A DNA stretch of 64,000 nt. Origin: an uncultured bacterium. Lineage in GTDB: Bacteria > Patescibacteriota > Minisyncoccia > Minisyncoccales > RBG-13-42-11. Of the stretch, positions 5,696 to 43,324 are shown in pieces. The notes beneath the pieces were generated by a model. That model had not been told where the DNA came from and did not search any database. It worked only from the letters and a program-made list of their open reading frames with translations. A program made the translations under genes and the position numbers. The DNA lies in assembly GCA_963790795.1 (NCBI GenBank), contig CAWBPO010000001.1, forward strand, positions 140,073 to 204,072, given 5' to 3'. Position 1 is the first letter of the stretch. Every line of letters begins with the position of its first letter.

Positions 5696-5769
5696 CGGGG
5701 CATAGTGTAACGGTAGCACGAGTCCTTTGGGAGGATTTAGTTCCAGTTCAAATCTGGATGCCCCGACCA
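5696..5769 (+). tRNA. tRNA-Pro (anticodon UGG), CCA encoded
   Basis: Hand-folded cloverleaf: acceptor CGGGGCA/TGCCCCG, anticodon arm AGTCC-TTTGGGA-GGATT, T arm TCCAG-TTCAAAT-CTGGA, discriminator A followed by genomic CCA. Confidence 0.9.
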
Positions 5770-5867: not shown

Positions 5868-6539
5868 ATGAAGCCTTTAAGTTTAAAAGAAAAGGTTGTA
5901 GGTTATCGAAAACGAGGTTATTCTTACAGAATGATTTCGGAAAAGTTAGGGTTGGCAAAAAGCACCCTTAGTAATTGGCTAAAAGAAGTACCATATCATC
6001 CCAACAGACAGGTATTAAAAAGAATAAAGTTAGCACCTTTAAGGGCGGCTGAGCAAAAATCTAGGATAAAAATTGCGGAAATAAAAAGAATTAAAGGCGG
6101 GGCCAAAGAAGAAATGGGATTGTTAACAAAAAGAGATTTATGGTTATTAGGAATAGGTCTTTATCTCGGCGAAGGTTCAAAACTATACGAAAGCATTAGA
6201 ATAATAAACTCCGACCCTGAAATAATTAAAATATCTTTAAAGTGGTTTAAAGAAGTTTGTAAATTGAAAAATAAAAACTTTAACCCTTCTGTTCATTTAT
6301 ATCCAGACAATAACATAAAAGAAAGTATAAATTATTGGTCAAAAATAATGGGTGTTCCTAAAAATCAATTTGGCAAAACTCAAATTGATAGAAGAATTAA
6401 TAAGTCCGGAAAAAAGAAAAGAAAACTACCTTATGGAACTATTCATTTACAAATAAAAAGCTGGCGTGAAAAAGAATTTGGGAGGAACCTTCATAGAAGA
6501 ATTATGGGATGGATTGAAGCGATCATAAATCAAATTTAA
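5868..6539 (+). CDS. HTH + LAGLIDADG-like protein (possible free-standing homing endonuclease or degenerate derivative)
   Basis: 223 aa. The N-terminus has an HTH-like YSYRMISEKLGLAKSTLSNWLK. The central DLWLLGIGLYLGEGSK resembles a single LAGLIDADG motif with Glu as the acidic residue. The C-terminal tail is basic. The assignment is by motif only. Confidence 0.4.
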   Translation: MKPLSLKEKVVGYRKRGYSYRMISEKLGLAKSTLSNWLKEVPYHPNRQVLKRIKLAPLRAAEQKSRIKIAEIKRIKGGAKEEMGLLTKRDLWLLGIGLYLGEGSKLYESIRIINSDPEIIKISLKWFKEVCKLKNKNFNPSVHLYPDNNIKESINYWSKIMGVPKNQFGKTQIDRRINKSGKKKRKLPYGTIHLQIKSWREKEFGRNLHRRIMGWIEAIINQI

Positions 6540-6540: not shown

Positions 6541-6615
6541 GCGGGTGTCGTATAGCGGTTATTATGCAACTCTTCCAAAGTTGAGATGGCGGTTCAACTC
6601 CGCTCACCCGCTCCA
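6541..6615 (+). tRNA. tRNA-Gly (anticodon UCC), CCA encoded
   Basis: Acceptor GCGGGTG/CACCCGC, anticodon arm CAACT-CTTCCAA-AGTTG, T arm GGCGG-TTCAACT-CCGCT, discriminator T then genomic CCA. It starts 1 nt after the upstream stop codon. Confidence 0.9.
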
Positions 6616-6658: not shown

Positions 6659-8188
6659 TTATTTTGCGTGTTCAACCACTCTCATTTCCCTGATTACTGT
6701 CACTTTAATTTCGCCAGGATATCTCAATTCTTCCTGTATCTGCTTAGCAATGTCTTTAGCTAAAGTTTTTGCTTGTAAATCATCTACTTCTTCCGGCTTG
6801 ACAAAAACTCTAATTTCCCGGCCTGCTTGCAGGGCCCAAGCTTTTTCCACTCCTTGGAAGTTCAAAGCTATTTTTTCCAATTCTCCCAGTCTTTTCAAAT
6901 AGTTTTCCAAAGTATCTTTTCTCGCTCCTGGTCTGGCGCCTGATATCTGATCAGCTGTCTGCACTATTATCGCTTCAAGCATCTCATAAGGATATTCTTC
7001 GTGATGTGATTTCATAGCTGAAACCACTTCCTTTTCAACTCCGAATTTCTCCAAAATCTTGATTCCAATATCAACGTGAGAACCTTCAATTTGATGGTCA
7101 ACTGCTTTACCAATATCGTGCAAAAGACCTGCTTTCTTGCAAACCAAATGGTCTGCTCCAATTTCAGAAGCCAAGGCTCCTGCCAAATGGCTTACTTCAA
7201 TTGAATGAAGCAGAGTGTTCTGTCCGAAACTTGTCCTGAATTTCAGTCTCCCCAGCAATTGAACTATTTTAGGATCAAGACCAACCACGCCTGTGTCGTA
7301 AATCGCTGTTTCTCCTGCTTCTTTTATCTGTTTTCCAATGTCTGCTTCAGCGAACTGCACCTGCTCTTCAATCTTGGCAGGCTGTATTCTACCGTCTTTG
7401 ATTAATCTTTCCAAGGCGATTTTAGCGATTTGCCTACGAACAGGGTCAAATCCTGAAATAACCACTGATTCTGGCGCTTCATCAATAATAACTTCAACTC
7501 CTGTCAATCTTTCCAAAGTTCTGATGTTCCTGCCTTCTTTGCCGATTATTCTTCCTTTTATCTCTTCTGAAGGAAGATTCAAAGAAGTTGTTGTAATTTC
7601 TTGAGCTTGATTCAAAGCGCACTTTTGGATGGCAATAGTCAAAAACTCTTTTGCTTTTTCCTCGTACTTTTCCCAACCTTCTTTTTCCAGCTTTCTTATC
7701 TTTTCCAAAGCTTCCTGCTGGTATTCTTTTTCCAGATTCTGAAGCAGTTCTTTTTTCGCTTCTTCCTTGGAAATCTTGGCAATTCTTTCCAAATTGTCTG
7801 TCGCTTCCTGCTTTAATTTTTCCAAACTCTCCTTAATAGCTCTCAACTTTTCCACCTTTTCCTGAAATTCTTTTTGGTCATTCTCAAGAGTAGAAATTTT
7901 CTGGTCTAAAAAAGTTTCTCTTTTCAATAAAAGACGCTCGGTTTTTAAAACCTCATAGCGCCGACTATCTATTTCTTTTTTGGCGTTTTCCAAAAACTGC
8001 CTGGTTTTTTGTTCGGCTTCAGAAAGAATTGTTTCGCTCTCTTGTTTGGCTTTGAGAACTTTTTTTTGAAGTTTCGCTTCTAGAGTTCCCGCTTGTTTTT
8101 TGGCAATTGATTGACGGGCATAATAACCCAAAACAGAACCCAGGGCTAAAACAAATATGCCCACCAAAAGTAGGATAAATTGATTCAT
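6659..8188 (-). CDS. rny: Ribonuclease Y
   Basis: 509 aa with an N-terminal TM helix, a long coiled coil, a KH domain (IIGKEGRNIRTLE) and an HD domain (HSIEVSHLAG...LLHDIGKA). Confidence 0.9.
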   Translation of the reverse strand: MNQFILLLVGIFVLALGSVLGYYARQSIAKKQAGTLEAKLQKKVLKAKQESETILSEAEQKTRQFLENAKKEIDSRRYEVLKTERLLLKRETFLDQKISTLENDQKEFQEKVEKLRAIKESLEKLKQEATDNLERIAKISKEEAKKELLQNLEKEYQQEALEKIRKLEKEGWEKYEEKAKEFLTIAIQKCALNQAQEITTTSLNLPSEEIKGRIIGKEGRNIRTLERLTGVEVIIDEAPESVVISGFDPVRRQIAKIALERLIKDGRIQPAKIEEQVQFAEADIGKQIKEAGETAIYDTGVVGLDPKIVQLLGRLKFRTSFGQNTLLHSIEVSHLAGALASEIGADHLVCKKAGLLHDIGKAVDHQIEGSHVDIGIKILEKFGVEKEVVSAMKSHHEEYPYEMLEAIIVQTADQISGARPGARKDTLENYLKRLGELEKIALNFQGVEKAWALQAGREIRVFVKPEEVDDLQAKTLAKDIAKQIQEELRYPGEIKVTVIREMRVVEHAK

Positions 8189-8238: not shown

Positions 8239-8281
8239 AATAGCAAACCGTAGTTTGATATATCGGACAAAGTCCGCTATA
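8239..8281. repeat. Structured 42-nt repeat, copy 1 (variable hairpin CGGAC-aaa-GTCCG)
   Basis: aatagcaaaccgtagtttgatatatcggacaaagtccgctata. It shares the core TAGCAAACCG(Y)AGTTTGATATATCG with copies at 8371, 43230 and 43269. Confidence 0.8.
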
Positions 8282-8315
8282 CGAATTAATGTTAGCAATT
8301 TTCTTCTGTTTTGTC

Positions 8316-8345
8316 AAAATAAAAAGCCGGGCTTTAAACCAGGCT
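8316..8345 (-). terminator. Probable intrinsic terminator after the clpP / pilin-like unit
   Basis: The minus strand reads AGCCTGG-tttaaag-CCCGGCT (6 of 7 bp) followed by TTTTTATTTT. Confidence 0.5.
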
Positions 8346-8370
8346 AAAAACGTTAAAAGAGAATAATTGC

Positions 8371-8414
8371 TATAGCAAACCGCAGTTTGATATATCGAAT
8401 CTTCGATTCGCTAT
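8371..8414. repeat. Structured 42-nt repeat, copy 2 (variable hairpin CGAATC-ttc-GATTCG)
   Basis: tatagcaaaccgcagtttgatatatcgaatcttcgattcgctat. It overlaps the TAG stop (8411-8413) of the pilin-like gene. Confidence 0.8.
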
Positions 8415-8827
8415 TGGCAAGGATAAGTAAACCATCCTTCGCCCAAGCCCGTCCATTCGTTAACGCCGATTGTCAAAAAGAAAGTGTTGATTATCAGCCA
8501 AGCGCCGTAAACTATTATTAAGCCGAAAACCACAGAAGTTAAAAGGCTTTTCGCTCTGCTTAATCCGCCAGGATCTCCGGCAGAAGAAAAAAACATCACT
8601 CCTCCGATAACCAGCATTAAAGCGGCAATCGGCGGCACAATATCTATCAAAACAAAGTCAATAATTCTATCAAACATCACAAAAAAATGACAAAGCTTGC
8701 AAGGATTACCGGGTTCTCCGCAAGGGACAAGCCCTTCAGATTGAGCCAGAACCTGTCCGACAACAAAACAAAGAAATAATCCGGAAAAAACCAATAATAT
8801 GGCTAATCTTTTTTTCATGATTTTCAT
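8411..8827 (-). CDS. Small secreted two-TM pilin-like protein (TrbC/VirB2-like, the CPR T4SS-pilin type)
   Basis: 138 aa with a signal peptide (...VVGQVLAQS), a GLVPCG..C..C motif, then two hydrophobic helices separated by SSAGDPGGLSRAKS. The same module opens the proteins at 22919 and 23975. Confidence 0.6.
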   Translation of the reverse strand: MKIMKKRLAILLVFSGLFLCFVVGQVLAQSEGLVPCGEPGNPCKLCHFFVMFDRIIDFVLIDIVPPIAALMLVIGGVMFFSSAGDPGGLSRAKSLLTSVVFGLIIVYGAWLIINTFFLTIGVNEWTGLGEGWFTYPCQ

Positions 8828-22088: not shown

Positions 22089-22958
22089 ATGCCTTTAATG
22101 GACTTATCTTACAAAAAAAACATTAAAAATTTCCTCAAAAACAAGCAAATTCAGCCCGCAAAGAGATTAGGGCAGAATTTTCTAGTTGATAAAAAAGCAG
22201 TAAAAAAAGTTATTGAAGCTGCTGAGTTGAATCAAAAAGACTTGGTTTTGGAGATTGGGCCTGGTCTTGGCGTTCTAACTAAAGAGTTAGCCAAAGGAGC
22301 AAAAAAAGTAATTGCCGTGGAAAAAGACCAAAATATGATTAAATTTTTGGAAGAACTGCTGAAAGCTGAAAACGTAGAACTTGTTAATAAAGATATTTTG
22401 AAGTTTACTCCTAGTTTTAAAACGAAAAACTATAAAATAGTGGCTAATCTGCCTTTTTATTTAACTGCTCCGGTTATTCGCCGCTTCCTTGAAACTGTTG
22501 AAGTCAGACTTCAACAAATGGTATTGGTGGTTCAAAAAGAAGTAGGCCAAAGAATTTGCGCCGACCCGCCAAAAATGAGCATCTTGGCTGTTTCTGTCCA
22601 AGCATTTGCCGAAGCAAAAATTATGGGCTATCTTTCTAAAAAATCATTTTGGCCCCAGCCAAAAGTTGATTCTGCTATTATTAAAATCTCTCCTTGCTTC
22701 TCAAATTATCCATATCTTTTTCCTGAAAAAAGAGAATTATTCTTTAAAATCGTCAAAGCCGGATTTAGCCAGCCGAGAAAGCAATTGATAAACAATCTTT
22801 CTAAAAAATTAAAGCTTAATAAAGAAAAAACGGGAAAATGGCTCTTAAAAAACAAAATCCAACCTTCTCAAAGGGCTGAAACCCTTGCTTTAAAAGATTG
22901 GATAAATCTGACTGAAACTTATCTCATGGGTATGACTTTTAAAGACTTTATTACTTGA
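22089..22958 (+). CDS. rsmA: 16S rRNA (adenine1518/1519-N6)-dimethyltransferase
   Basis: 289 aa with RLGQNFLVD, the SAM-binding EIGPGLGVLT and ANLPFYLT. Its last 40 nt overlap the convergent gene at 22919. Confidence 0.85.
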   Translation: MPLMDLSYKKNIKNFLKNKQIQPAKRLGQNFLVDKKAVKKVIEAAELNQKDLVLEIGPGLGVLTKELAKGAKKVIAVEKDQNMIKFLEELLKAENVELVNKDILKFTPSFKTKNYKIVANLPFYLTAPVIRRFLETVEVRLQQMVLVVQKEVGQRICADPPKMSILAVSVQAFAEAKIMGYLSKKSFWPQPKVDSAIIKISPCFSNYPYLFPEKRELFFKIVKAGFSQPRKQLINNLSKKLKLNKEKTGKWLLKNKIQPSQRAETLALKDWINLTETYLMGMTFKDFIT

Positions 22959-23950
22959 GCTCCGATGTTCATGGAGCTGTAACGGTGAACTTCGCAATTG
23001 CCGTTGAAACCCGTTTGGTCAAAACGCGCCACCAAATATCTGCCGTTTATGTAAAGCGACCTGACATTGTCGCTTATATTAGTACTGGAATAAGAACCAG
23101 CAGCAAATGGCCAGCACTGACCTCCTCTCATAAAATCAAATTTCCACCACTGCCATCCCACACAATCATCTCCACATATGGCGCCGAAACCCGAACAAAC
23201 GTTTTTACATTCTGTTCCGCACAATTCGTTATAGCTGTCCACCTCGTAAAGGGTGACAGCGTTTCCTCCTCCGCCAGCACCTTGGACAAAGACAGTAATT
23301 GAATAACCGCCATTAGCTTTTGAAATATCGCAACCGCTCTCAAGACAAACAACACAACTGCCTTGCCAGTTTGGCTTACTGTGAAGAACTGCTCCGTATT
23401 TAATATCCTCGGTATTATTGAATCTGACATAAGCAACCTGGCCATTCATATCTCCCAGACTGGAGCTTGACTGCTGAAAAAGCTGGCAGTTTTCCTCCCC
23501 AGAATCTTTGCATAATAAAACTTGAGCCACTCCTTCAGCTACCAGCTCTGGCTTTTGATATTCAACACTAATAACCTTTAGTTGAGGGTTAATGGTGGTC
23601 AGAATCAAATAAGAACCCAAGATAATAACCAAACCCATTACAGCAGAAAGCATTTGGCTGTTTGCGTCTGACATGGACGAAGGATTGCCAGCAGAAGTCA
23701 AATAACGCACTCCTCCCAAAACCAAAACGCCAAAAGCGACAAAACCGCAAATAACTACGGCAAAATTAAATATGTATTTCACGTAATCCGGCAAAAGAGG
23801 AGTAGTGGTAATGGCAGATTCTGAACCAATTTCCGGTAAAGGAACTTCCAAAGGCCGGCCTTCCGTTTCTTGAGCCAGACAAAAGCCAGCTAAAAACAAA
23901 ATCAACAGAGAAAAAAAGACGATTATTGAAAGTTTTTTCTTTTGAAACAT
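22919..23950 (-). CDS. Pilin-like two-TM module fused to a Cys-rich extracellular domain (343 aa)
   Basis: Signal peptide (...GFCLAQE), then the module YVKYIFNFAVVICGFVAFGVLVLGGVRYLTSAGNP...GLVIILGSYLILTTINP shared with 23975 and 8411. A roughly 200-aa C-terminal domain with 14 Cys follows, with beta-gamma-crystallin-like strand patterns (my impression only). Confidence 0.55.
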   Translation of the reverse strand: MFQKKKLSIIVFFSLLILFLAGFCLAQETEGRPLEVPLPEIGSESAITTTPLLPDYVKYIFNFAVVICGFVAFGVLVLGGVRYLTSAGNPSSMSDANSQMLSAVMGLVIILGSYLILTTINPQLKVISVEYQKPELVAEGVAQVLLCKDSGEENCQLFQQSSSSLGDMNGQVAYVRFNNTEDIKYGAVLHSKPNWQGSCVVCLESGCDISKANGGYSITVFVQGAGGGGNAVTLYEVDSYNELCGTECKNVCSGFGAICGDDCVGWQWWKFDFMRGGQCWPFAAGSYSSTNISDNVRSLYINGRYLVARFDQTGFNGNCEVHRYSSMNIGAQVIKSLKVIPMR

Positions 23951-23974
23951 AAGTTATTTAATTATATCACAAAT

Positions 23975-25831
23975 TTATTGCGGAGAGTATTCGCTCTTGC
24001 AGCAGAACATATTATCCATAAAATCTAAATGTTCCGAAGTCTGGCCGTAGCACTTAGATATGGCTTCCCCTTCTTCGTTATAGAAAGGAGTTTCCCTAAG
24101 AGCAAACTCTCTAATGCTTGAACAAGTGAAAAACTCACGCCAAATAACGCCCTCTTTTCCTTCTTCAAGCTTTGTGTAAGATTCTTGGGGATTATGGCAA
24201 GCTGTTATTTGATTTTGGACAACTCCCAAAATTTGGAAGATTTTTGATAATTTCAGGTATTCATCGTCAATATTACCCTGGATAAGATTTACTAATTCTA
24301 TATAAGAAGAGGATATTTGCGAATCGCTTTCTTTAATTTTATTGTATAGGGAATTAATCTGTGATTTCTTTGGCTGGTCTCCGGGACAAACGTCCCCTGT
24401 ACAAGGCCGGGTCTGACAATAACTACAATCTACCCATCTTTCGCACCAGCCGTCACAATTTCCTTCTTCATCCCAGCTACAACAATAATATTCCGGACAC
24501 TGTCTTTCTATCCAGTCACACTGGGGAGAACAGGCAGAAAGAACGCAATCAGTTGGATCGGCCAAAGAAATCATATCATTGCCAAAGGTTATTTCTTTTT
24601 TGGCGTTGTCGTTAATATTATCAAGCTCAACCAGCATTCTTCTGGCTAATTCTTCGGAACTGTCAATATCTTTGCCAATGAATATCTCACCACTGCACAG
24701 CGTTGCTTCTTCAAAAGACTCCATCTCTTTTCCAAGTTCGGCAAACAAATCTTCATCAACTTCCACAGTCGCAACAGAATAAAGCAATTCAGCGCAGTAA
24801 AAAGTTGTCAGGTAATAAGGATGATCCGTTAAATGAATATATTCAAAAGGCCTTTCTCTGTTGAATTCTTCTATCCTGTGCTTCTCTGCCATATATTGCT
24901 GGTAAACCCAAAAGTCTTTGTAAGCTATTAGAAACTGCGATTTGCCGTTTTCACTCGTAGTAAGCGAGCACTTCTTCATCATTTCTTCTGCTGAAAGTAA
25001 ATCTTTATATACTTTTCTAAAACCAATATATTCATCTCCTTCTTTAGTAGAGCCGTTGATTTCCCTGTCCAGTTTTTTCTGCCAAAATATAAGCCCGTCT
25101 TCTTCATTATTAATAAGCTTTTCAATCTCTTTTCTTTTTGTCTCAATTGCATTCTTGTTCGGACAAGGATTACCCGTACAGCTTCCTGCCAGGCAGCTTG
25201 CCGCATTATTTCCCGAACAGTGCGGCTGCACCTGGTTACAGGAACATTGGGCAATAAGAGAATTTAAATCCGCTGTTTTTTGTCCAATCTTGTTTAAAAT
25301 ATCTCTAACTTTTTTTGAAAAATCTTTTAGATTGGTTAATCTAACTTCTAAAAAAAGCTCTTGAATTAATGCGCCTATCGGAATTTCAGTGTAAGCCAAG
25401 GTTTCTTTTTCTAGGGTAGGCGTTTCTACGAATTCAGGAGTAGATTTTGTTATTTCCGGCGCTGCCAATAAAGTCAACCCGGGATTAATGGTTGTCAGAA
25501 TCATGTAAGAACAAAGCAAAACCAATAGCCCGATAAAAGCAGCAAACATTTGTTCTTTGGCGTCTTTTTGAAAGGCCGGAATGCCGGTTGAAGTCATATA
25601 TCGTATGCCGCCAGCCACAAAAACACCGAAAGCTACCAATCCTGAAATAATTATTGAAAAATTAAAAATATACTTTACGTATTCTGACAAACCGAAAAAA
25701 GTTGTTTCAGGCATTAACCCGCCAGCTTCCGGATAATCAACTTCCAACTGCCTTTGGGCAAAAACAAAACCAGCAACAACTAAAGAAAAAATAAGAACAA
25801 AAAGAAAAGAAAATGTTTTCAGCTTCTTCAT
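23975..25831 (-). CDS. Pilin-like two-TM module fused to a large Cys-rich extracellular domain (618 aa)
   Basis: I set the start at MKKLKTFSF (25831); the track's longer start would overlap the divergent 25929 gene. The N-terminal module is the same as in 22919. Cys clusters include CSCNQVQPHCSGNNAASCLAGSCTGNPCP and CSPQCDWIERQCPEYYCCSWDEEGNCDGWCERWVDCSYCQTRPCTGDVCPG. Confidence 0.55.
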   Translation of the reverse strand: MKKLKTFSFLFVLIFSLVVAGFVFAQRQLEVDYPEAGGLMPETTFFGLSEYVKYIFNFSIIISGLVAFGVFVAGGIRYMTSTGIPAFQKDAKEQMFAAFIGLLVLLCSYMILTTINPGLTLLAAPEITKSTPEFVETPTLEKETLAYTEIPIGALIQELFLEVRLTNLKDFSKKVRDILNKIGQKTADLNSLIAQCSCNQVQPHCSGNNAASCLAGSCTGNPCPNKNAIETKRKEIEKLINNEEDGLIFWQKKLDREINGSTKEGDEYIGFRKVYKDLLSAEEMMKKCSLTTSENGKSQFLIAYKDFWVYQQYMAEKHRIEEFNRERPFEYIHLTDHPYYLTTFYCAELLYSVATVEVDEDLFAELGKEMESFEEATLCSGEIFIGKDIDSSEELARRMLVELDNINDNAKKEITFGNDMISLADPTDCVLSACSPQCDWIERQCPEYYCCSWDEEGNCDGWCERWVDCSYCQTRPCTGDVCPGDQPKKSQINSLYNKIKESDSQISSSYIELVNLIQGNIDDEYLKLSKIFQILGVVQNQITACHNPQESYTKLEEGKEGVIWREFFTCSSIREFALRETPFYNEEGEAISKCYGQTSEHLDFMDNMFCCKSEYSPQ

Positions 25832-25904
25832 TGCTTTATAATAACAGTTTTTCCAGCCTTGACCAATAATTGTTTTACTTCCTTTTCTCTTTTTCTTTGT
25901 GGTA

Positions 25905-25913
25905 TGATATAAT
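25905..25913 (+). promoter_or_regulatory. Extended -10 element TGATATAAT upstream of the VirB6-like gene
   Basis: The same 9-mer recurs at 5832 and 34338. It ends 15 nt before the 25929 ATG, which implies a very short leader with no SD. Confidence 0.4.
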
Positions 25914-25928
25914 AAAACAATTAATTTT

Positions 25929-28121
25929 ATGGGTCCAATAGTAAGCGCAGTTGCCACTGCTTTATCAGGCGTTTTCGCCACTCTATTAGGGTTAGTTTTC
26001 AATATCTTGGGGATAATCAGCGGAGCTTTTCTATGGGTCTCTGTTAATGTTTTCAATTGGGTTCTTTCGCCTGATTTTATTTCTCTGTCTTATACCGATC
26101 CATCCAAAAATCCTTTTCTTGAAATCGGCTGGGGATTAACCAGGGATTTTGCCAATATTATCATTGTTTTGGCATTAGTAGTAATAGGATTGGGAACAGC
26201 TCTTCGTCTTGCCGGCTATCAAGCTCAGAAAGCTTTGCCAAGCTTGATTCTAATTGCTCTTTTAATTAATTTCACTCCTGTTATATGCGGCTTGATTGTT
26301 GATGCGTCAAACATCTTAATGAGTTTTTTTGTCGGAGAAGGTTTTGCCGGAGGAAACTCTTTTGTAAATCTGGCTCTTAACCAATGGTCAAATATCAGTT
26401 CTCTGGCAGGTGGACTAAAATTCTGGGATCCTGTTGCCAGCCAAGAAGCAATAGCTGCGTCTATTGGCAGTTTTGTTTTGATAATGTTTAATTTTTTTGC
26501 CGCTTTGATTTACCTTGTTTTTGCTCTTTTGTTTGCCCTCCGTTATGTTGCTATTTGGGTCTTGGTTATCCTTTCGCCACTTGCTTTTGCCTGTTATATT
26601 CTGCCCGACACCAGAAATGTCTGGTCACAATGGTGGAAACAATTCATCCAGTGGTCGTTTATTGGAGTGATTGCTGCTTTCTTTTTATATCTGGCAGACC
26701 ACTTCTTAATGGCGACAAAAAGTACTGATTTTCTGGGTTCGGCCATGCAGGAAGTGGGCAATGCTCCTGGCTTATCGTCGATTCTTAATAGTATTATGCC
26801 TTACGGTATTGCTCTTGTTTTTCTTTTTATAGGATTGATGCTGTCTTTGTCTTCTAGTGCTGCGGGAGCTGACCAGATTCTTAATTTTACTAAAAAAGGA
26901 GGAATGAAAGCTGGAAAATGGATGGGCACTCGAGGGAAAGCTTTTGCCAGAGCCAGGGTTCCTGAAGCTGTAAGGAGATGGGGCGAAAGACAATCTACTG
27001 CTAAAAGATGGGGAGAAGGAGAAAAAGGAGCTAAGGGCGCTTTAAAAAGAATGGTCGGCGCTCCGGCAGCTGGAATTCAGCGCGGTATGGGCGGGCTGAT
27101 AACCAAAGGTATGAACGAAAGACTGGATACTGAAAAAAGCCACGAAAAAGCAAAAAAACAAGATGTGGCCAGTAATCTTAGAGATTATCGCGGAGCAGGC
27201 AGTGAGGCTGAAAAAGCAGGAATAATGGGGGCGATGGTTGAGAAAAACCAATTAAAAGATGCTCTTGATGTTGATAAGTTTGGCAAAAATGCTTTAACAG
27301 AAGGAGAACTATTAAAAACTTATGAAAAAGCAGTAAAATTAGGAGATTCAGATACAGCTGAAGGCATAGAAAGAGGGTTGGTTGGTAAACCAACAGTTAA
27401 CAGTTTTGCAGGGATTCTAAATAAAATGGACAATACTAAATTTGATGCGCAAGGGCTTAAGAAAGAAGATAGAAACAAAGGGTATACTTCCTATGCCCAA
27501 AAAATAATTGGCGAAGCTAAAACAGCTGATGCGATAAAACAACTTCAAAAAGGATGGGAAGATGATGACAAATTAATGGAATATGCCCATTTGTCCTGGG
27601 GGGGAAGCCAAATTAGTCAGGCTACTACAACCCACGGCAAAAACTTTAGTGATAAGTTTTCAAAATTCGCTCAAAGACGTGGAACTGACTGGTATTTTGA
27701 AATTGATCCCAATACAAACAAGATGAGAAATCCTGATGTGCCTCGTTATCTTAGTAGTAGTGGCGCTATGTCTTTGGGTATAGGATTGGCTGGTGTAAAC
27801 CAAAAAGAAATTGGCAAGAAAGCTTTTGCCGGAAGAGTAATTGAACAAAACCCTAGTTTGTCAGCACCTTACCAGCAATACTCCGCAATAAGAGAAACGA
27901 GAAAACATATTGCTAGGGAAACAAAAAAAGGAGCGGACCAAGAAGCAATTAGCAAAGCACAACAAAAATTAATAAACGCAGAATCCTCTTTAAACAACAA
28001 TTTGAATATTCTTTATGGCACAAATCCGAACTTGGAAAAAGAATGGGATAATCTTATGGAACAACTAGAGCCAAAAAAGCAAGGGCAAAAAAGAACCCCT
28101 TATCAAAGAAGAACCCCTTAA
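25929..28121 (+). CDS. Polytopic VirB6/TrbL-like membrane protein with a long hydrophilic C-terminal extension
   Basis: 730 aa. The first roughly 330 aa hold 8-9 hydrophobic helices, a pattern like T4SS VirB6/TrbL. The remaining roughly 400 aa are charged and soluble. The call rests on topology and context, not on a search. Confidence 0.5.
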   Translation: MGPIVSAVATALSGVFATLLGLVFNILGIISGAFLWVSVNVFNWVLSPDFISLSYTDPSKNPFLEIGWGLTRDFANIIIVLALVVIGLGTALRLAGYQAQKALPSLILIALLINFTPVICGLIVDASNILMSFFVGEGFAGGNSFVNLALNQWSNISSLAGGLKFWDPVASQEAIAASIGSFVLIMFNFFAALIYLVFALLFALRYVAIWVLVILSPLAFACYILPDTRNVWSQWWKQFIQWSFIGVIAAFFLYLADHFLMATKSTDFLGSAMQEVGNAPGLSSILNSIMPYGIALVFLFIGLMLSLSSSAAGADQILNFTKKGGMKAGKWMGTRGKAFARARVPEAVRRWGERQSTAKRWGEGEKGAKGALKRMVGAPAAGIQRGMGGLITKGMNERLDTEKSHEKAKKQDVASNLRDYRGAGSEAEKAGIMGAMVEKNQLKDALDVDKFGKNALTEGELLKTYEKAVKLGDSDTAEGIERGLVGKPTVNSFAGILNKMDNTKFDAQGLKKEDRNKGYTSYAQKIIGEAKTADAIKQLQKGWEDDDKLMEYAHLSWGGSQISQATTTHGKNFSDKFSKFAQRRGTDWYFEIDPNTNKMRNPDVPRYLSSSGAMSLGIGLAGVNQKEIGKKAFAGRVIEQNPSLSAPYQQYSAIRETRKHIARETKKGADQEAISKAQQKLINAESSLNNNLNILYGTNPNLEKEWDNLMEQLEPKKQGQKRTPYQRRTP

Positions 28122-28134
28122 AAAATAAAAACGA

Positions 28135-28178
28135 GCAGGAAAACTTACATTGCTTAAAAACATTGCAAATTTTCCTGC
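28135..28178 (-). terminator. Hairpin terminator for the 28190 gene (minus strand)
   Basis: GCAGGAAAA...TTTTCCTGC is a 9-bp stem with a 26-nt loop that contains a CATTGC direct repeat. On the minus strand it is followed by TCGTTTTTATTTTTT. Confidence 0.5.
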
Positions 28179-28189
28179 CCCCATAACCG

Positions 28190-28504
28190 CTATCCACTCT
28201 CAATCTCTTTGTGTAGTTTCGCAGCTTCCTGCCTTTTTTTAAAGGATTGGTGGTTGCGGCGAGCATTGGAAAGCTCGATGGAAGCTTCAGCTAAATCTTG
28301 TATAGAAAGTTTTGTCTCTGCTTCCAGTCCCGCCATGACCTGTTTGTTTAACATCTCTATGGGCGAAGCTATCTCTGTCGATGACGGTGTCGGCGTTGAA
28401 GCTGTAGGTTGCGTCTGCTGCGGCTGTCGTTTTAAACGACTCACCAACAACGCTATGGCAATCGCAGCAAGAAGAATAACTATTATAATAAACACTATTT
28501 GCAT
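28190..28504 (-). CDS. Small single-pass membrane protein, unknown function
   Basis: 104 aa with an N-terminal TM helix (IVFIIIVILLAAIAIALLV), a Q/P/T-rich linker and a helical tail. Confidence 0.5.
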   Translation of the reverse strand: MQIVFIIIVILLAAIAIALLVSRLKRQPQQTQPTASTPTPSSTEIASPIEMLNKQVMAGLEAETKLSIQDLAEASIELSNARRNHQSFKKRQEAAKLHKEIESG

Positions 28505-28564
28505 TATTCCCTCCTATTTTTCGTTAATTATATTATATACCATATTATAAATTTGTCAAGACAT

Positions 28565-29035
28565 ATGGCCAAACAATATACACAAGAAGAATTATGGAAG
28601 TTGTATGAAAAACTTCCGGAAGAATTAAAAAGAGCAATGGTCGGAGCGGACACCTCTGACCATGTTTGGAATATCTGTGAGCGATACGAGTTTGACGAAG
28701 TTTCAAAAGTGGCAAAACTGGTCGGAGACGTTCTGCTCGGCATTCTGGCGCCGGAAGACTTCCAGGAAGAGCTGGAAAAAGAGTTGAAAGTGGAAAAAGA
28801 AACAGCTAAAAAAGCAACTCAAGAGATAAACAGATTTATTTTTTATCCCGTAAGACCTCTTTTAGAACAACTGCATGAAATTAAAGTGTCGCCAGAAAGA
28901 AAACCAACCGCAGAACAACCAATAGTCACAACAGAACCGGGGGTAGAAACAGAAATTAAAACAGAAAAAGCAGTTGGAGAGGAAAAACCATCAGCTCCAT
29001 CTTCACAAGATACTTACCGAGAATCTATTGAATAA
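28565..29035 (+). CDS. Hypothetical protein (first gene of the PrgI-VirB4 string)
   Basis: I set the start at MAKQYTQEELWKLYEKLPEEL (ATG at 28565, in frame with the track ORF). It is 156 aa and acidic, and ends 2 nt before the PrgI-like gene. Confidence 0.5.
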   Translation: MAKQYTQEELWKLYEKLPEELKRAMVGADTSDHVWNICERYEFDEVSKVAKLVGDVLLGILAPEDFQEELEKELKVEKETAKKATQEINRFIFYPVRPLLEQLHEIKVSPERKPTAEQPIVTTEPGVETEIKTEKAVGEEKPSAPSSQDTYRESIE

Positions 29036-29037
29036 AT

Positions 29038-29454
29038 ATGCGTTTTACAGTGCCGCAATTCATTGAACATGAAGCAAAAATTGTCGGACCTTTAACTTTC
29101 AGACAGTTTGTTTTTGTCGGGGTAGCCGTAGCCATTTGCTTTGTTTTCTATTTTTCTTTTCCTTTCACTACTTTTTTAATGGTTTCCATGGTTTTAATAG
29201 GAGCGGCACTAGGCCTGGCTTTTTTGAAAGTGAACGGAAAACCTTTGCCTTCTCTTTTATTTGATTTTTTGAAGTTTACGATAGCGCCGAAAATGTATGT
29301 CTGGAAAAAGAAAGAACGCCAGGTAGTGGTTTACAGAAAGAGCGAGATTTCTCCTGAAAAACCCGAAGAGGAAGAAAAAGAAGCTCCGACAAGAATAGTG
29401 ACAAAAAGCAGGTTGAAAAAAATGCAAACCGAAATTGAAACTCACACAAAATAA
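29038..29454 (+). CDS. PrgI-family (VirB3-like) T4SS membrane protein
   Basis: 138 aa. MRFTVPQFIEHEAKIVGPLTFRQFVFVG followed by two TM helices is the signature opening of PrgI-family proteins from Gram-positive conjugation systems. Confidence 0.7.
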   Translation: MRFTVPQFIEHEAKIVGPLTFRQFVFVGVAVAICFVFYFSFPFTTFLMVSMVLIGAALGLAFLKVNGKPLPSLLFDFLKFTIAPKMYVWKKKERQVVVYRKSEISPEKPEEEEKEAPTRIVTKSRLKKMQTEIETHTK

Positions 29455-30075
29455 ATGGAAAACTCAAGCAGCCAACAATTTTTGGAAATAGACCAGATAA
29501 AAGAAGGTTTTTTGCTTTTGAAAAACAAGTCTTTAAGAGGAGTTTTAATGGTTTCTTCTTTGAATTTCGCTTTAAAATCAGACGACGAGCAAAAAGCGAT
29601 TATTTATCAGTTCCAGAATTTTTTAAACTCTCTGGATTTTTCAATTGAAATTGTCTTGCAATCCAGAATTTTAAACATCACAGGCTACATCGACAAACTG
29701 AAAGAAATGGAAAGGATTCAGGATAACGAGCTGATGAAAATACAAACTGCAGAATACAGGAAGTTCATTACCGAACTGATCGGCGGCAGGCAGATTCTTT
29801 CCAAAATCTTTTTCCTGACAGTCCCTTTCACTTTGGTTGAGATTCCGAAATTAGGCGGAAAAAGAAAAGTTAATTTCAGCGAAGAACAATTTCAAAGAGC
29901 AAAATCCCAGATCTGGCAAAGAATGGAATTTGTGGCAGTGGGATTGAGAAGATGCGGTTTGCAGTGTTCGCCTTTGAACACTCTTGAACTAATAGAGCTT
30001 TTTTGGAGCTTGTATCATCCTGAAGAATCAGAGGTCGGCTATTATCCTGAAATCCCACCGGAAATAATCAGATAA
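29455..30075 (+). CDS. T4SS-associated protein resembling the N-terminal domain of VirB4-type ATPases
   Basis: 206 aa. FLEIDQIKEGFLLLKNKSLRGVLMVSSLNFALKSDDEQKAIIYQFQNFLNSLDFSIEIVLQSR parallels the opening of the next ORF (IIAPASIIVKPDHLMMGKRIAKSFFIFSYPRYL...). There is no gap after the PrgI-like gene and a 2-nt gap before the VirB4-like gene. Confidence 0.35.
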   Translation: MENSSSQQFLEIDQIKEGFLLLKNKSLRGVLMVSSLNFALKSDDEQKAIIYQFQNFLNSLDFSIEIVLQSRILNITGYIDKLKEMERIQDNELMKIQTAEYRKFITELIGGRQILSKIFFLTVPFTLVEIPKLGGKRKVNFSEEQFQRAKSQIWQRMEFVAVGLRRCGLQCSPLNTLELIELFWSLYHPEESEVGYYPEIPPEIIR

Positions 30076-30077
30076 TT

Positions 30078-31919
30078 ATGGATTTATCTTTTTTAAAAAA
30101 CATATCATTGCCAAAAGGAGAGAAAAAGCCCGATGATTCGGAAAAGATTTTTGAAACCCCGATGATAGAAGCAAAAGACATCATTGCCCCAGCTTCAATT
30201 ATAGTGAAACCTGACCATTTAATGATGGGCAAAAGAATTGCCAAATCTTTTTTCATTTTCTCCTATCCGAGATATTTAAGCACTGCCTGGCTGTCACCAG
30301 TAATCAATCTTGACCAGCCAATGGATGTCAGTTTTCACATCCATCCGATTGAAACAGGCTTTGTTTTAAAACAATTAAGAAGAAAAGTGACCGAGGTCCA
30401 GGCTGAAATCATGGAAAGGGAAGAAAAGGGCTTGATAAGAGACCCTGCTCTGGAAACAGCTTACAGGGATTTGGAAGATTTGAGAGACAGACTGCAAACA
30501 GCCCAGGAAAAAATGTTTAAATTCGGATTATATCTTACTGTTTACGGCAAAACTTTAGAAGAAATAAAAAGCGTGGAAACAACTTTGCGCTCAATTCTGG
30601 AATCAAAGTTAATATATATCAAACCTTCCCTTTACCAGCAAAAAGAAGGGTTTAATTCAACCTGTCCTTATGGTTTGGACCAAATACAAGCTCACAGCCC
30701 GATGAACACAGGACCGCTTTCTTCCACTTTTCCTTTTGTCTCTTTTGATTTGAGCTCCAACGAGGGTGTCTTATTCGGGGTAAACATGCACAACAATTCC
30801 TTAATTCTTTTTGACCGCTTCAGTTTGGAAAATGCCAACAGCGTCATTTTTGCCAAGTCAGGGTCCGGAAAATCTTACGCAGTAAAACTGGAAATTATAA
30901 GGTCTTTGATGTTCGGCATAGAATGCATTATTCTTGACCCTGAAAATGAATACCGATTTCTAGCCGACGCAGTGGGCGGCTCTTTCTTTAACATGTCTTT
31001 GTCCTCGCCGAACCACGTTAATCCTTTTGATTTACCGACCCCCAGAGAAGATGAAAAGCCAGAAGACGTTCTCCGCTCAAACATTGTTAATCTGGTCGGA
31101 CTTTTAAGAATCATGCTGGGAGGATTGACCGCAGAAGAGGACGCTATTATTGACAGGGCTCTGTCTGAAACTTACGCGGCAAAAGACATTACTCCAGCCA
31201 CCGATCCAACCCTTTGGAGGGAAAAAATTCCTTTGATGTCTGATTTTGAGCAAGTTCTTGAAGAAATGGAAGGAGCTGAATCTTTAGTAAGGAGAGTGAG
31301 AAAGTTTTCCAAAGGCACTTTTTCCAAATTTTTCAACCAGCCCACCAATATTTCAATGGACAAGCCTTTTGTTGTCTTCGGCATAAGAGACATGGAAGAC
31401 GAGTTAAGACCCATGGCCATGTTCATAATCATGAGGTATATCTGGAACAAGGTGCGTTCTGAAATGAAAAAAAGAATTCTGGTGGTTGATGAAGCCTGGT
31501 GGATAATGAAATCAGAAGACGGAGCTTCATTCCTGTTCGGCATGTGCAAAAGAGCCAGAAAATACTGGCTGGGAGTGACAACTATTACTCAAGACATCAA
31601 TGACTTTATGAAGTCAGAATACGGCAAAGCGATTATTACCAACTCATCCTTGCAGTTTTTAATGAAACAATCTTCAGCCACGGCTGATGTCGTTCAAAAA
31701 ACTTTCAACCTGACAGACGAAGAAAGAATTTTATTGCTGGAATCTGCGGTCGGCGAAGGAATCTTTTTCGCCGGGCAAAAGCACGTCTCAATGAAAGTAA
31801 TCGCCTCTTATACTGAAGACCAATTTATAACCACCTCTCCGGAAGAGGTTTTAAAGATAAAAGAAGCTAAAAAGAAAATAGCTGAGCAGCAATCTTATGG
31901 AACAAGCTCAAGAATTTGA
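30078..31919 (+). CDS. virB4: VirB4/TraC-like T4SS ATPase
   Basis: 613 aa with Walker A AKSGSGKSYAV, Walker B ILVVDEAWW (the DEAW typical of VirB4) and TTITQDINDF near the C-terminus. Confidence 0.8.
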   Translation: MDLSFLKNISLPKGEKKPDDSEKIFETPMIEAKDIIAPASIIVKPDHLMMGKRIAKSFFIFSYPRYLSTAWLSPVINLDQPMDVSFHIHPIETGFVLKQLRRKVTEVQAEIMEREEKGLIRDPALETAYRDLEDLRDRLQTAQEKMFKFGLYLTVYGKTLEEIKSVETTLRSILESKLIYIKPSLYQQKEGFNSTCPYGLDQIQAHSPMNTGPLSSTFPFVSFDLSSNEGVLFGVNMHNNSLILFDRFSLENANSVIFAKSGSGKSYAVKLEIIRSLMFGIECIILDPENEYRFLADAVGGSFFNMSLSSPNHVNPFDLPTPREDEKPEDVLRSNIVNLVGLLRIMLGGLTAEEDAIIDRALSETYAAKDITPATDPTLWREKIPLMSDFEQVLEEMEGAESLVRRVRKFSKGTFSKFFNQPTNISMDKPFVVFGIRDMEDELRPMAMFIIMRYIWNKVRSEMKKRILVVDEAWWIMKSEDGASFLFGMCKRARKYWLGVTTITQDINDFMKSEYGKAIITNSSLQFLMKQSSATADVVQKTFNLTDEERILLLESAVGEGIFFAGQKHVSMKVIASYTEDQFITTSPEEVLKIKEAKKKIAEQQSYGTSSRI

Positions 31920-32310
31920 AAAAGACTCATTCGGAGCTGAACAACTTAAGGAAGTGGCGATTTTTTTAGGACCAGAAGCGATTGTCATGCTTCTTACAGC
32001 AATTGTCTTTGATGTGGGAGAGGTTTTGGTCGAGCTCATTCCTTATGCCGGACAGATTCTTTCAATTATTATGGACATTATTGCTGTTATCTTTTTTGGC
32101 GCTTGGATGTGGTTTCGTTCAGGACAAATGGCGGTACCCCAGAAAACAGGAGAAAGAATAGCTAAAGCAAAAACTCAAGTGACAAAATGGTCAAAAAGAT
32201 TAAAATGGCTGAGGCCTTTGGCTTTTGTTCTTGAAATGATTCCGGTAGTTGGTGCTCTGCCCCTTTGGACTTTGGTCGTTTATTTTGAGTTAAAATATAA
32301 TACAAAATAA
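31897..32310 (+). CDS. Small three-TM membrane protein, unknown function (overlaps the virB4 end by 23 nt)
   Basis: 137 aa with three hydrophobic segments. It is the last gene of the string. Confidence 0.45.
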   Translation: MEQAQEFEKDSFGAEQLKEVAIFLGPEAIVMLLTAIVFDVGEVLVELIPYAGQILSIIMDIIAVIFFGAWMWFRSGQMAVPQKTGERIAKAKTQVTKWSKRLKWLRPLAFVLEMIPVVGALPLWTLVVYFELKYNTK

Positions 32311-32331: not shown

Positions 32332-32781
32332 CGTAATAATCACTTTCCTTTCCGGCTCCTGGCCAATGCTTTCTGTAGTAATATCTGAACGTTCGGCCAG
32401 TTCCATATGGATGATTCTTCTTTCGTAAGCTGACATTGAGGGCAGTTCTTTTTGTTTCTTACTAAGAGCCACTTCATCGGCGACAGAACGCGCCAGCTCT
32501 TTTAAATAATCTTTCTTTTTCTTTTTATAGTCGTTAATATCCAAATCAATATAAAACATCTCTGTAATTTTTCTTCTCAGAATCGCTTTCAAGAGATGCT
32601 GGATTTCAGTTAAGGTTTGGCCTCCTTCTCCTATTAGGATTTGCGGGTCTTCGGTTTTAATGTTGATGGAAATTGTTCCTTCTCTTTCTGGCAAAACTTC
32701 CACTTCCACGTTAAAAGTGGTTTTCTGGAAAAATTCTCTTGTGGTTTTTTTAATTGTTTCTGTATCTTTAGTATTAAGCAT
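32323..32781 (-). CDS. jag: Jag/SpoIIIJ-associated RNA-binding protein (KH + R3H)
   Basis: 152 aa with an R3H-type C-terminus (ERRIIHMELAERSDITTESIGQEPERKVII). It is downstream of yidC and ends in TGA. Confidence 0.8.
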   Translation of the reverse strand: MLNTKDTETIKKTTREFFQKTTFNVEVEVLPEREGTISINIKTEDPQILIGEGGQTLTEIQHLLKAILRRKITEMFYIDLDINDYKKKKKDYLKELARSVADEVALSKKQKELPSMSAYERRIIHMELAERSDITTESIGQEPERKVIITPR

Positions 32782-33502
32782 TTTGTTTCTGCGGCTTAAT
32801 AATTAAATACTGCTGGAAAATTGAAAAAAGGGCGGTAATTATCCAATAAAGCCCGATGGCTGCAGGCAGTTTCCAAAGGATGAAGACCGTGAAAAGAGGA
32901 AAAAAGTAAAGCATCTGCTTTTGCATTATGTTTGAGAATTGAGCCATCTGATCTCCTTTAACAGCTGATTTTTTGGTTTTTGGCATTAACATTTTTGTCT
33001 GGAAGAACTGAAATATTCCGGCCAAAACAGCCAATATTAAGCTTGGCTCGGCAAGATTCATCAGTCCCAAAAATGTCGGATTAATTTCTCCTGGAGAGGG
33101 GACAAAACTGTAAAGAGAATTCATTGCTTTTGGGGCTAATCCATTCCAAAAAACCCTATAAAGGGCGAACAGAATCGGCAGCTGGATTAAAAGAGGAAGG
33201 CATCCTCCCAAAGGATTGATTTTTTCTTTTTGGTAAAGAGCCATCATTTCTTTGGCTTGTTTTTCCTTGTCATTCTTGTATTTTTGCTGGATTTCTTGGA
33301 TCTGCGGCTGTAGTTCAGCGAGCACCTTCTGAGATTTGATTGATTTCAGCATTAAAGGATAAAGAATGACCCTGATTATAATCGTTAAAACAATCACTGC
33401 AACCCCAAAATCCTTTCCCGGCAAAAACTGGTAAAGGAAAATTAAGGCGTTGAATAACGGCTGATATAATAATGTGTTAAAAGCGTTGATAAAAATTTCC
33501 AT
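32774..33502 (-). CDS. yidC: Membrane protein insertase YidC (short Gram-positive type)
   Basis: 242 aa with KSQKVLAELQPQIQEIQQKYKND and NPLGGCLPLLIQLPILFALY. Confidence 0.9.
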   Translation of the reverse strand: MEIFINAFNTLLYQPLFNALIFLYQFLPGKDFGVAVIVLTIIIRVILYPLMLKSIKSQKVLAELQPQIQEIQQKYKNDKEKQAKEMMALYQKEKINPLGGCLPLLIQLPILFALYRVFWNGLAPKAMNSLYSFVPSPGEINPTFLGLMNLAEPSLILAVLAGIFQFFQTKMLMPKTKKSAVKGDQMAQFSNIMQKQMLYFFPLFTVFILWKLPAAIGLYWIITALFSIFQQYLIIKPQKQNA

Positions 33503-35920: not shown

Positions 35921-37069
35921 ATGAAAATTACAATTTTAAAAGATAAATTAAAAGAAGGGGTTAATATTGTCGAAAAAATTGCAACAAAATCTACAAGTTT
36001 ACCCGTTTTAAATAATATTTTAATATCTGCAGAGAAAAATTTTTTAAATCTGTCTGCTACCGACTTGGAAGTGGGGGTAAGATGGTGGGCGCTTGTTAAA
36101 ACGGAAAAGGAGGGAATTATTGCTATTCCATCTAAAATTTTATCAAGTTTTATTAATTTTCTGCCGAATAAATCAGTTAGTTTAGAGTTGAAAAATCTCG
36201 ACTTAAAAATTAGCTGTGAAAATCACCAGACCGTATTAAAAGGGGTGGACCCCGAAGAGTTCCCGATTATCCCCAAAGTTACCAGTGAAGAAAAAATCGA
36301 AATACCAATTAAAAACTTCTGTCAGGGGTTGGGGAGTATTGTGGATATTGCCAGTCTTTCTTCAACAAAGCCGGAAATATCAGGAATTTATTTTTTATTC
36401 CAGAATAACTCAATTACCATGGCAGCCACAGACAGTTTTCGTTTGGGAGAAAAGAAAATTCAATTGGATTCTTCCGCAAATAAAATATCCAAAGATTATT
36501 CTTTGATTTTGCCCCAAAAAGCAGCGAAAGAGATTATGAACATATTTAACGAAAGAGAAGGGATATTAACAATATATTTTTCTCCAAATCAAATTCTGTT
36601 TGAAACGCGCCTTTCGGAAGTCTCTCATCCGCAAATCCAACTTACCTCCAGACTGGTTGAGGGAGATTATCCGAATTATCAGGAGATTATTCCCAAAAAG
36701 CACGAAACCAGAGTTTCTTTTATCCTCGAAGAGTTTATCAACCAAATCAAACTGGCGTCTCTTTTTAGTGGGAAGATTAACGAAATCAAACTAAATATTG
36801 ATGCTCCAAAAAATAGAATTAATTTTTTCAGCCAGAACCCCGAAGTCGGAGAATACAATAGTTTTTTACCAGGGAAAGTTGATGGAAAATCTTGCGAAAT
36901 ATCTTTCAACTACAGATTTTTGCTGGACGGCCTTTTGAACATTAGTATTAACCAGCAAAAAAAATCAGAAGCTGTTTTGGAATTGACAGGGTCTGAAAAG
37001 CCAGGAGTTTTAAGATTAAAAGGGGATGACAATTATCTTTATTTGGTAATGCCCATTAAAAGCAGTTAA
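35921..37069 (+). CDS. dnaN: DNA polymerase III beta sliding clamp
   Basis: 382 aa, directly downstream of dnaA, with the typical opening MKITILKDKLKEGVNIVEKIATKSTSLPVLNNILI. Confidence 0.9.
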   Translation: MKITILKDKLKEGVNIVEKIATKSTSLPVLNNILISAEKNFLNLSATDLEVGVRWWALVKTEKEGIIAIPSKILSSFINFLPNKSVSLELKNLDLKISCENHQTVLKGVDPEEFPIIPKVTSEEKIEIPIKNFCQGLGSIVDIASLSSTKPEISGIYFLFQNNSITMAATDSFRLGEKKIQLDSSANKISKDYSLILPQKAAKEIMNIFNEREGILTIYFSPNQILFETRLSEVSHPQIQLTSRLVEGDYPNYQEIIPKKHETRVSFILEEFINQIKLASLFSGKINEIKLNIDAPKNRINFFSQNPEVGEYNSFLPGKVDGKSCEISFNYRFLLDGLLNISINQQKKSEAVLELTGSEKPGVLRLKGDDNYLYLVMPIKSS

Positions 37070-43310: not shown

Positions 43311-43324
43311 TAACAATACAGGGG

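Follow-up and report, generated by a model that had tools for sequence, protein, structure and literature searches.

What kind of sequence is a short repeat that stands at the ends of genes, can fold into two hairpins and changes the sequence of these hairpins from copy to copy as long as the strands still pair? The question is raised by a 64,000-nt stretch of DNA (hereafter the window, meaning the whole stretch that was analyzed) which RNase Y homologues put in or near Candidatus Nealsonbacteria. A preliminary description, made from the letters of the window, had reported four copies of such an element, two of them beside the RNase Y gene (rny). The answer that we consider rather probable is a mobile repeat of Patescibacteria, short, palindromic and non-autonomous, comparable to REP/REPIN elements (REP, repetitive extragenic palindromes) or to hairpin-ended derivatives of IS200/IS605.

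The window was searched with a 27-nt core, up to three mismatches being allowed, and 100 dinucleotide-preserving shuffles served as the control. The core matched at positions 8239, 8371, 43230 and 43269, all on the + strand and at the four places reported before, and 0 of the 100 shuffles had a match; an independent repeat finder returned the same four-member repeat family (D5). A fifth, divergent copy was picked up by a covariance model, the follow-up that the preliminary description had proposed. All five copies in these 64 kb are intergenic or overlap just a start or stop codon, and they are listed here with their covariance-model scores:

8239–8281, + strand: copy 1, AATAG-CAAACcgtaGTTTG-ATATAT-CGGACaaaGTCCG-CTATA; 60.5 bits.
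8371–8415, + strand: copy 2, TATAG-CAAACcgcaGTTTG-ATATAT-CGAATCttcGATTCG-CTATT; 65.4 bits.
43230–43272, + strand: copy 3, first unit of a tandem, with hairpin 2 CGAAcaaatTTCG, in which one pair is broken; 62.1 bits.
43269–43311, + strand: copy 4, second unit of the tandem, with hairpin 2 CGAACaaaGTTCG; 40.8 bits (non-overlapping part).
62913–62955, - strand: copy 5, TATAG-CGGGtacgCCCG-ATATAT-TGAGCAtttTGTTCA-CTATA, from a divergent subfamily; 32.9 bits, E=3e-5.

Copies 3 and 4 constitute a head-to-tail tandem with a 39-nt period and the common junction GCTATAGC; the closing stem of copy 4 holds a G-T pair (…GTTATT). The hairpin 2 sequences of the first four copies are as previously quoted. The "near-invariant 5′ half" that had been described for these four is not an absolute feature, as a different hairpin 1 is present in copy 5 (window 62913–62955), in its sister copy at positions 1003–1048 of L031 and in L045 (L-numbers denote sequence loci gathered from genome, metagenome and viral collections).

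The unit (39–45 nt) reads TATAG-[hairpin]-ATATAT-[hairpin]-CTATA, and as a single strand it is predicted to form a three-way junction composed of a 5-bp closing stem, two hairpins of 4–7 bp and a 6-nt AT linker. The covariation figures are based on an alignment (A1) of 32 distinct copies, in which 96.3% of the predicted-pair cells form pairs, versus 31–37% when the partners are slid, and all six pairs of hairpin 2 are altered on both sides; the covariation score was reached by 0 of 500 shuffles. That hairpin 1 and the 5′ closing strand are constant in A1 stems from the search pattern, and in rarer members found without pattern preselection hairpin 1 covaries too (CGGGCG/CGCCCG in L031, CGGG/CCCG in window copy 5, CGAAC/GTTCA in L045); in L047 and L013 it has shrunk to C-taag-G. 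The two covarying hairpins each lie 5 nt from an end of the unit. Selection on structure, as had been proposed, is borne out by the pairing of hairpin 2, which has been kept through many double changes in the 32 copies. Within the window the covariation is modest and the strong signal comes from the wider family only: one true compensatory change (A-T to G-C, hairpin 2 of copies 1 and 4) and the distinct 6-bp hairpin 2 stem of copy 2 are there as claimed, but the evidence is thinner than had been implied, as the difference between copies 3 and 4 in this hairpin is a single pair-breaking change of G to T. Minimum-free-energy folds of single copies often contain alternative pairings because the element is nearly palindromic; that of copy 5 is exactly the proposed three-way junction.

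The part that is invariant across members (TATAG, ATATAT and CTATA) is itself palindromic and lies entirely at the folded junction, and hairpin length ranges from 11 to 17 nt with the junction bases unchanged. A fixed junction combined with free hairpin length suggests that what is recognized is a folded single strand and not B-form DNA. Hairpin types are modular, the TGAGCG type being joined to CAAAC in L055 and to CGGGCG in L031 and window copy 5. Members of the TTTA/CAAA subfamily are almost perfect 45-bp palindromes, and in the CG subfamily the two arms are unlike each other and each is still self-complementary.

The element also occurs in other genomes. A scan with the pattern ATAGCAAACNNNNGTTTGATATAT returned 12 loci in a collection of species-representative genomes, 43 in a metagenome collection and 1 in a viral collection; the core, whose wider search had been recommended, is present in about 45 public genome and metagenome contigs of Patescibacteria (Nealsonbacteria, Paceibacteria, Parcubacteria). 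It is present in seven species-representative genomes named for Patescibacteria-group taxa and, with the full architecture, in about 36 metagenome loci. Eight of the 12 genome matches are in taxa named Nealsonbacteria, Paceibacteria, Parcubacteria, Saccharibacteria or unclassified Patescibacteria group bacterium, and a further one (L007) is labelled just "bacterium". The complete architecture is found in seven of these nine loci, L008 being a repeat of the L003 copy, and the Saccharibacteria locus L006 and its metagenome twin L028 have the first half of the element only. In about 36 loci the pattern is followed directly by a 4–7-bp hairpin of widely differing sequence and then by (C/T)TATA, examples of hairpin 2 being CGCtgaaaGCG, CGTCCtcgGGACG, CGAGCggaGCTCG, GGAACtataGTTCC, TGAGTAtccTACTCA, CGGAGCcactGCTCCG and CAAATCtttGATTTG. 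In the metagenome Ga0315296 an identical version of hairpin 2, CGAACtaaaGTTCG, stands at at least four different, unrelated loci, as expected for copies of a master element. Species-representative genomes have one or two exact-pattern matches each, a number to be read as a lower bound.

Version CGAACtaaaGTTCG is also the commonest hairpin 2 (L015, L019, L024, L026, L049, L051) and has the form of the Gram-positive LexA (Cheo) box, CGAAC-N4-GTTCG. A LexA operator was considered and rejected, as the spacing is N3 in the window copies and the stems of many copies are unrelated, and the likeness is probably a coincidence. Matches outside the Patescibacteria (L004, L010–L012, L014, L023, L033) have neither the second hairpin nor the closing stem and look fortuitous, and a link to phages was set aside, the single viral-contig match being without hairpin 2 and probably due to chance. 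Positions 1380–1480 of L004 (Thermoflexales) and 100–260 of L042 carry a different tandem repeat, built from the palindromes GCTATATAGC and GTTTGATATATATCAAAC, which has words in common with the element without its two-hairpin architecture and may be a distant relative in another phylum.

No Rfam family was matched at gathering score in the window or in eight loci, or at E<=0.01 in six loci holding at least eight copies, in line with the earlier remark that the motif was not recognizable as a known family, and a literature search found no description of the sequence or of REP elements or miniature inverted-repeat transposable elements (MITEs) in Patescibacteria. The repeats appear to be an undescribed family of REP/MITE-like mobile repeats and not a known RNA gene.

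As judged from related sequences, the copies are insertions in intergenic DNA. L057 and L058 belong to the same or a near-identical genome (GCA_964481125.1), with an RNase Y that is 91% identical and the same ClpP-pilin-rny order. In a pairwise alignment (A2) copy 1 corresponds to a single clean 39-column gap in L057 (cgTAT^tattagc, versus cgTAT[AGCGG...GTTTGCTAT]tattagc in the window), 52 of the 54 bases from the gap to the rny ATG are identical, and L057 keeps the rny promoter (TTGACA-N17-TAACAT) and the 5′ untranslated region without copy 1. The gap is bounded by TAT, and its 39 nt are also the period at which copies 3 and 4 repeat. L057/L058 are without copy 2 as well, and the pilin gene there ends ...tgtcacTAA. 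In L062 and L063 the sequence TAA-accc-TTGACA-N17-TATAAT stands directly after ruvC and the whole tandem of copies 3 and 4 is missing, versus about 90 extra bases, including both copies, between the ruvC stop and the same promoter in the window. A filter-free covariance-model search of about 145 kb from seven related genomes, including 43 kb of GCA_964481125.1 syntenic with the window segments that hold copies 1, 2 and 5, did not find a single copy; no empty site could be defined for copy 5, the synteny of the relatives downstream of murE being different.

Tandems that share the GCTATAGC junction with a 39–41-nt period are common, in the window and in L016, L019, L043/44, L045 and L049, and an orthologous site with a single unit in L030 has two in L043. 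The absence of copies in relatives, the tandems and the presence of one version at many loci together indicate a repeat that spreads as DNA. The preliminary description had set structural selection against "simple duplication", an opposition that is not borne out: copies 3 and 4 are a plain 39-nt tandem, and copies 1–2 and 3–4 are missing in relatives. The single exact filled/empty pair fits both a TAT duplication and an insertion after (T)AT with no duplication; since the empty site of copy 2 must in addition retain a stop codon, the unit would start at A2, T3 or A4 of TATAGC.

Three further features define the surroundings of the first four copies:

8289–8317, - strand: rny promoter TTGACA-N17-TAACAT, conserved in L057; context, outside the element.
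about 8315–8345, - strand: hairpin and U-run resembling an intrinsic terminator, for the pilin gene, recognized by its fold; between copy 2 and the rny promoter.
43196–43223, - strand: consensus promoter TTGACA-N16-TATAAT, also context; in the minus sense it follows copy 3 at a distance of 6 nt, and it is conserved in both L062 and L063.

The rny gene occupies 6659–8188(-). Copy 1 ends 50 nt from its start codon, as had been stated; read in the sense of rny, it begins 7 nt past the -10 box of the promoter and probably forms the 5′ end of the predicted 5′ untranslated region. The adjoining gene (8411–8827, -) encodes a pilin of the type IV secretion system (T4SS)/TrbC type, and its stop codon (TAG, 8411–8413) lies inside copy 2, again as described. 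Copy 2 is upstream of the terminator of this gene; the terminator, correctly placed before between copies 1 and 2, is conserved in L057 with a stronger stem and was not called by a simple terminator scan. The distance from the end of copy 4 to the ruvC stop codon is 14 nt, and copy 5 is located between murE (61565–62887, +) and an RtcB-like gene (start about 63003, +).

Several observations concern these and similar neighborhoods in their own right. The promoter by copy 3 drives a region (window 42960–43195, -) that consists of a leader of roughly 125 nt and then a highly acidic open reading frame (ORF) of 37–43 codons; counterparts lie at L062 880–1160 and L063 10495–10780, the sequence is conserved in both relatives with no Rfam match, and the conserved hairpins of the leader are …gcatataa..tatgc… and ctccgcNaaaagcggag. 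The region may be a small RNA or leader that has escaped annotation. A type-IV-secretion-like cluster at 22919–32310 of the window (two large T4SS-pilin-domain proteins, a TrbL-like protein and a TraG/VirB4-type P-loop ATPase) is distinct from the pilin gene beside rny, and a second DUF87/TraG-like ATPase is encoded at 55138–57603. Long direct repeats occur at 39699–41243 within and between two large secreted-protein ORFs with fibronectin-type-III-like matches (285 nt with 100% identity, 40339–40623 and 40959–41243; 300 nt with 74% identity, 39699–39998 and 40617–40916). In L002 (691–1062, -) a 23S rRNA gene is preceded by a copy at a distance of about 330 nt, and a TTGACA-N16-TAAGAT promoter is found 24 nt past the end of that copy. 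In L024 (250–420) a copy just after a tRNA-Ser is surrounded by long-range complementary segments (ctgcggaa…ttccgcag, gtgag…ctcac, gccccgt…acggggt), with a T-loop-like GGTTCGAATC; insertion into a tRNA was considered here and rejected, as deleting the unit in many registers restores no tRNA (ARAGORN).

Could the copies be structured RNA instead, that is, a three-way junction in untranslated regions, selected by the host for mRNA stabilization, RNase processing or termination/insulation and spread by duplication? This we regard as unlikely, although it is the rival that survives best. The covariation is strong, all five window copies share one orientation relative to transcription and the flanking genes, the predicted transcription start of rny coincides with the start of copy 1, and copies 2 and 4 both come after a stop codon; moreover, among the L003/L008/L030/L043 orthologues the element is about 93% conserved and the adjacent 56-nt untranslated region is scrambled. 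Across genomes, however, sense and antisense copies with respect to genes are balanced, at about 9 each, and the asymmetric subfamily is no exception; several close relatives are entirely without the element; the Rfam searches brought no match; and no U-tract follows the hairpins. That the copies might be ordinary terminators had been raised as well, and in a scan of window copies 1–4 no terminator was called at the elements, which have no T-run after either end. The mismatches tell nothing of the strand that folds: hairpin 2 has three G-T versus one A-C, the 12 G-T closing pairs reflect a search pattern in which the 5′ G was fixed and are biased accordingly, copies with G-T pairs are five sense and three antisense to genes, and once this bias is allowed for the G-U versus A-C counts carry no strand signal, for which reason they were discarded as uninformative. 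Of the two possibilities offered in the preliminary description, an RNA motif or a hairpin-recognized DNA site, the first gains nothing over the second from these data, the orientation across genomes being about 50:50.

A second possibility, somewhat more doubtful still, is a portable, roughly symmetric promoter/operator cassette, in which the central GTTTGATATATCAAAC would provide overlapping TTGATA -35 boxes, the hairpins would be spacers and the TATA ends outward -10 boxes (TGCTATAAT leftwards, TATAAT rightwards). The ends are compatible with this layout, as the three bases to the left of ATAGC are mostly att or ttt, which gives TGCTATAAT or TGCTATAAA on the other strand, and the right ends are mostly (C/T)TATAA(A/T); the sequence of copies in other genomes is TTGATA-N17-21-TATAAT and these copies adjoin gene starts, with start codons 10–13 nt past the element end in L001, L009 and L026 and overlapping the terminal CTAT(G) in L039 and L055. 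In L007 a weakly scored tRNA (32.1 bits) begins 3–5 nt past the element end, and in the L003 group nothing non-coding is conserved from recO to the next gene except a block made up of the element and about 10 nt. On the other hand, the canonical promoters of rny and downstream of ruvC are independent of the element and conserved in relatives without it; on this ground the element was rejected as the promoter of rny and of the gene that follows ruvC. A sigma-70 scan predicted no promoter inside the four window copies that it covered and called the neighboring canonical ones, the spacers would measure 17–21 nt, copy 2 would fire directly into the terminator, and a promoter spacer has no need of conserved self-complementarity. 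For other genomes promoter activity is retained, as a minor rival or else a possible side effect.

The mobile palindromic repeat remains the preferred reading, and the REP-like nature that had been put forward for checking is what fits best. REP/REPIN elements have GT[AG]G at the 5′ foot of the hairpin, number tens to hundreds of copies per genome and typically flank their RAYT (Y1) gene. The element resembles them in being a short, extragenic, imperfect palindrome present in several copies, with compensatory changes that keep the stems, a tetranucleotide-like motif (ATAG) 5′ of each hairpin, two hairpin modules in inverted arrangement, and locations within operons, after stop codons and in clusters. 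It differs in that the doublet is only 39–45 nt with a shared ATATAT center, the clusters are direct head-to-tail tandems and not inverted, the hairpin sequence varies between copies of one genome, copies seem to be few, the loci searched yielded no RAYT gene, and the host belongs to the Patescibacteria, not the Proteobacteria.

IS200/IS605 elements insert 3′ of a fixed 4–5-nt target without duplicating it and show an orientation bias with respect to the lagging-strand template. With these and with their non-autonomous derivatives (PATEs) the repeat shares a hairpin near each end and a selection that acts on structure and not on sequence; insertion beside a short fixed sequence without duplication would be in keeping with the data, and the 3′ end of the element resembles the target (…CTAT and …TAT). 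It is, however, an order of magnitude shorter, no tnpA/tnpB partner was seen, and there is no replication-strand bias at the two window loci. Correia elements, which are MITEs of Neisseria, have ends beginning TATAG, measure 100–155 bp with 26-bp inverted repeats and are recognized as duplex DNA. Common to both are AT-rich insertion sites of the TA type, ends that begin TATAG and can create -10-like boxes or start or stop codons, placement beside promoters and at gene ends, and transcribed hairpins; in the present element, in contrast, the arms vary freely as long as each remains a hairpin. The weakest rival, a minimal MITE moved as double-stranded DNA by a DDE transposase (IS630/Tc1-like or other), with TATAG.../...CTATA and the hairpin arms as terminal inverted repeats and TA or TAT as target-site duplication, would suit the TAT direct repeat that bounds the single exactly defined insertion, the near-palindromic TTTA/CAAA subfamily (45 bp) and the AT-rich, TATA-like flanks, but it is very improbable given a size of 36–39 nt, well short of known MITEs (about 50–500 bp), CG-subfamily arms that differ yet are self-complementary (which a double-strand-binding transposase would not select), the loss of the pilin stop codon from the inferred empty site that a simple TA duplication at copy 2 would entail, and the absence of a DDE transposase among the 20 window ORFs scanned against Pfam, where the sole hint is a sub-threshold Sleeping Beauty helix-turn-helix match in the ORF at 5868–6539.

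TIGR stem-loop arrays, which are known in Patescibacteria, consist of tandem units with variable yet palindromic stems, adjoin a tas (Nop-domain) gene and carry variable pairs of 9-nt spacers flanked by box C/D (PMC12045711; bioRxiv 10.64898/2026.09.09.750476). The likeness lies in tandem units whose stems are variable and consistently palindromic, in the same Patescibacteria (candidate phyla radiation) group; the difference lies in the dispersal of the element as singles or doublets with constant segments between the stems. A TIGR-Tas array was rejected on these two grounds and because no Nop-domain protein was found in the scanned ORFs or the syntenic annotations.

A number of results weigh against a mobile repeat of the REP or IS200/IS605 kind. 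A search for the REP-associated (RAYT/IS200-like) transposase, which the preliminary description had suggested, was unsuccessful: tblastn with IS200 TnpA and RAYT queries returned nothing in the window or in 452 kb of loci, and Pfam scans of 20 less obvious ORFs of the window revealed no transposase. The window spans the chromosomal replication origin, with a yidC-like gene at 32774–33502(-), dnaA at 34386–35735(+) and dnaN at 35921–37069(+), and its GC skew is negative at 1–16 kb and positive at 48–64 kb, with dnaA/dnaN in between; copies 1–2 and 3–4, the two CAAAC-type loci, are on opposite replichores and on the same strand, and thus show none of the lagging-strand bias of IS200/IS605, as far as two loci can tell. 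The motif is (T)ATAG and not GT[AG]G, the one or two exact-pattern matches per species-representative genome are far below typical REP loads, and exact boundaries are known for one insertion only. Lastly, the better preservation of the element than of the neighboring untranslated region in one orthologous set suggests host-level constraint or concerted evolution.

One ORF met in this search for an enzyme deserves mention. Located at 5868–6539(+) between tRNA-Pro (5696–5769) and tRNA-Gly (6541–6615), it encodes 223 aa with an N-terminal helix-turn-helix (a weak HTH_3 match in addition to the sub-threshold one to Sleeping Beauty) and a C-terminal part that is LAGLIDADG-like by eye, and similar ORFs adjoin rny in L059 and L061. 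By these features it may be a selfish gene of the homing-endonuclease type.

How a mobile repeat of this kind could move is suggested by its junction. A trans-acting enzyme would recognize the folded junction on single-stranded DNA and paste the unit next to a (T)AT site, and since the unit's own 3′ end (…CTAT) would recreate the target, head-to-tail tandems would arise. From the comparisons made above we infer that a transposase of the HUH/Y1 type is the best precedent for this putative enzyme. After insertion the rny mRNA would have copy 1 as its 5′-terminal structure, the pilin and ruvC mRNAs would carry copies 2 and 4 as 3′-proximal structures, and copy 3 would abut the -35 box of the next promoter. 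In these predicted positions the element may stabilize, process or insulate host transcripts as a secondary effect. A more ambitious proposal, which we advance tentatively and think has a modest chance at best, is that the repeats represent a new, Patescibacteria-specific class of hairpin-junction mobile DNA, that the enzyme reads the three-way junction TATAG/ATATAT/CTATA, as opposed to a hairpin of specific sequence, and is no relative of RAYT/IS200, and that the element has been co-opted by its hosts as a portable module at transcript ends or beside promoters, for instance where the RNase Y mRNA begins.

The genomes of Patescibacteria are very small and streamlined and are considered poor in repeats and mobile elements. 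If the interpretation as a mobile palindromic repeat is true, an active element of 39 nt, spread within one Nealsonbacteria lineage and common to several classes of Patescibacteria, would mark recent genome dynamics and gene flow among uncultured episymbionts, and would help to track down the enzyme responsible for its movement. Promoters, untranslated regions and stop codons, those of RNase Y included, would be naturally perturbed by it. For annotators the repeat is a warning that covarying hairpins in the genomes of Patescibacteria need not be RNA genes.

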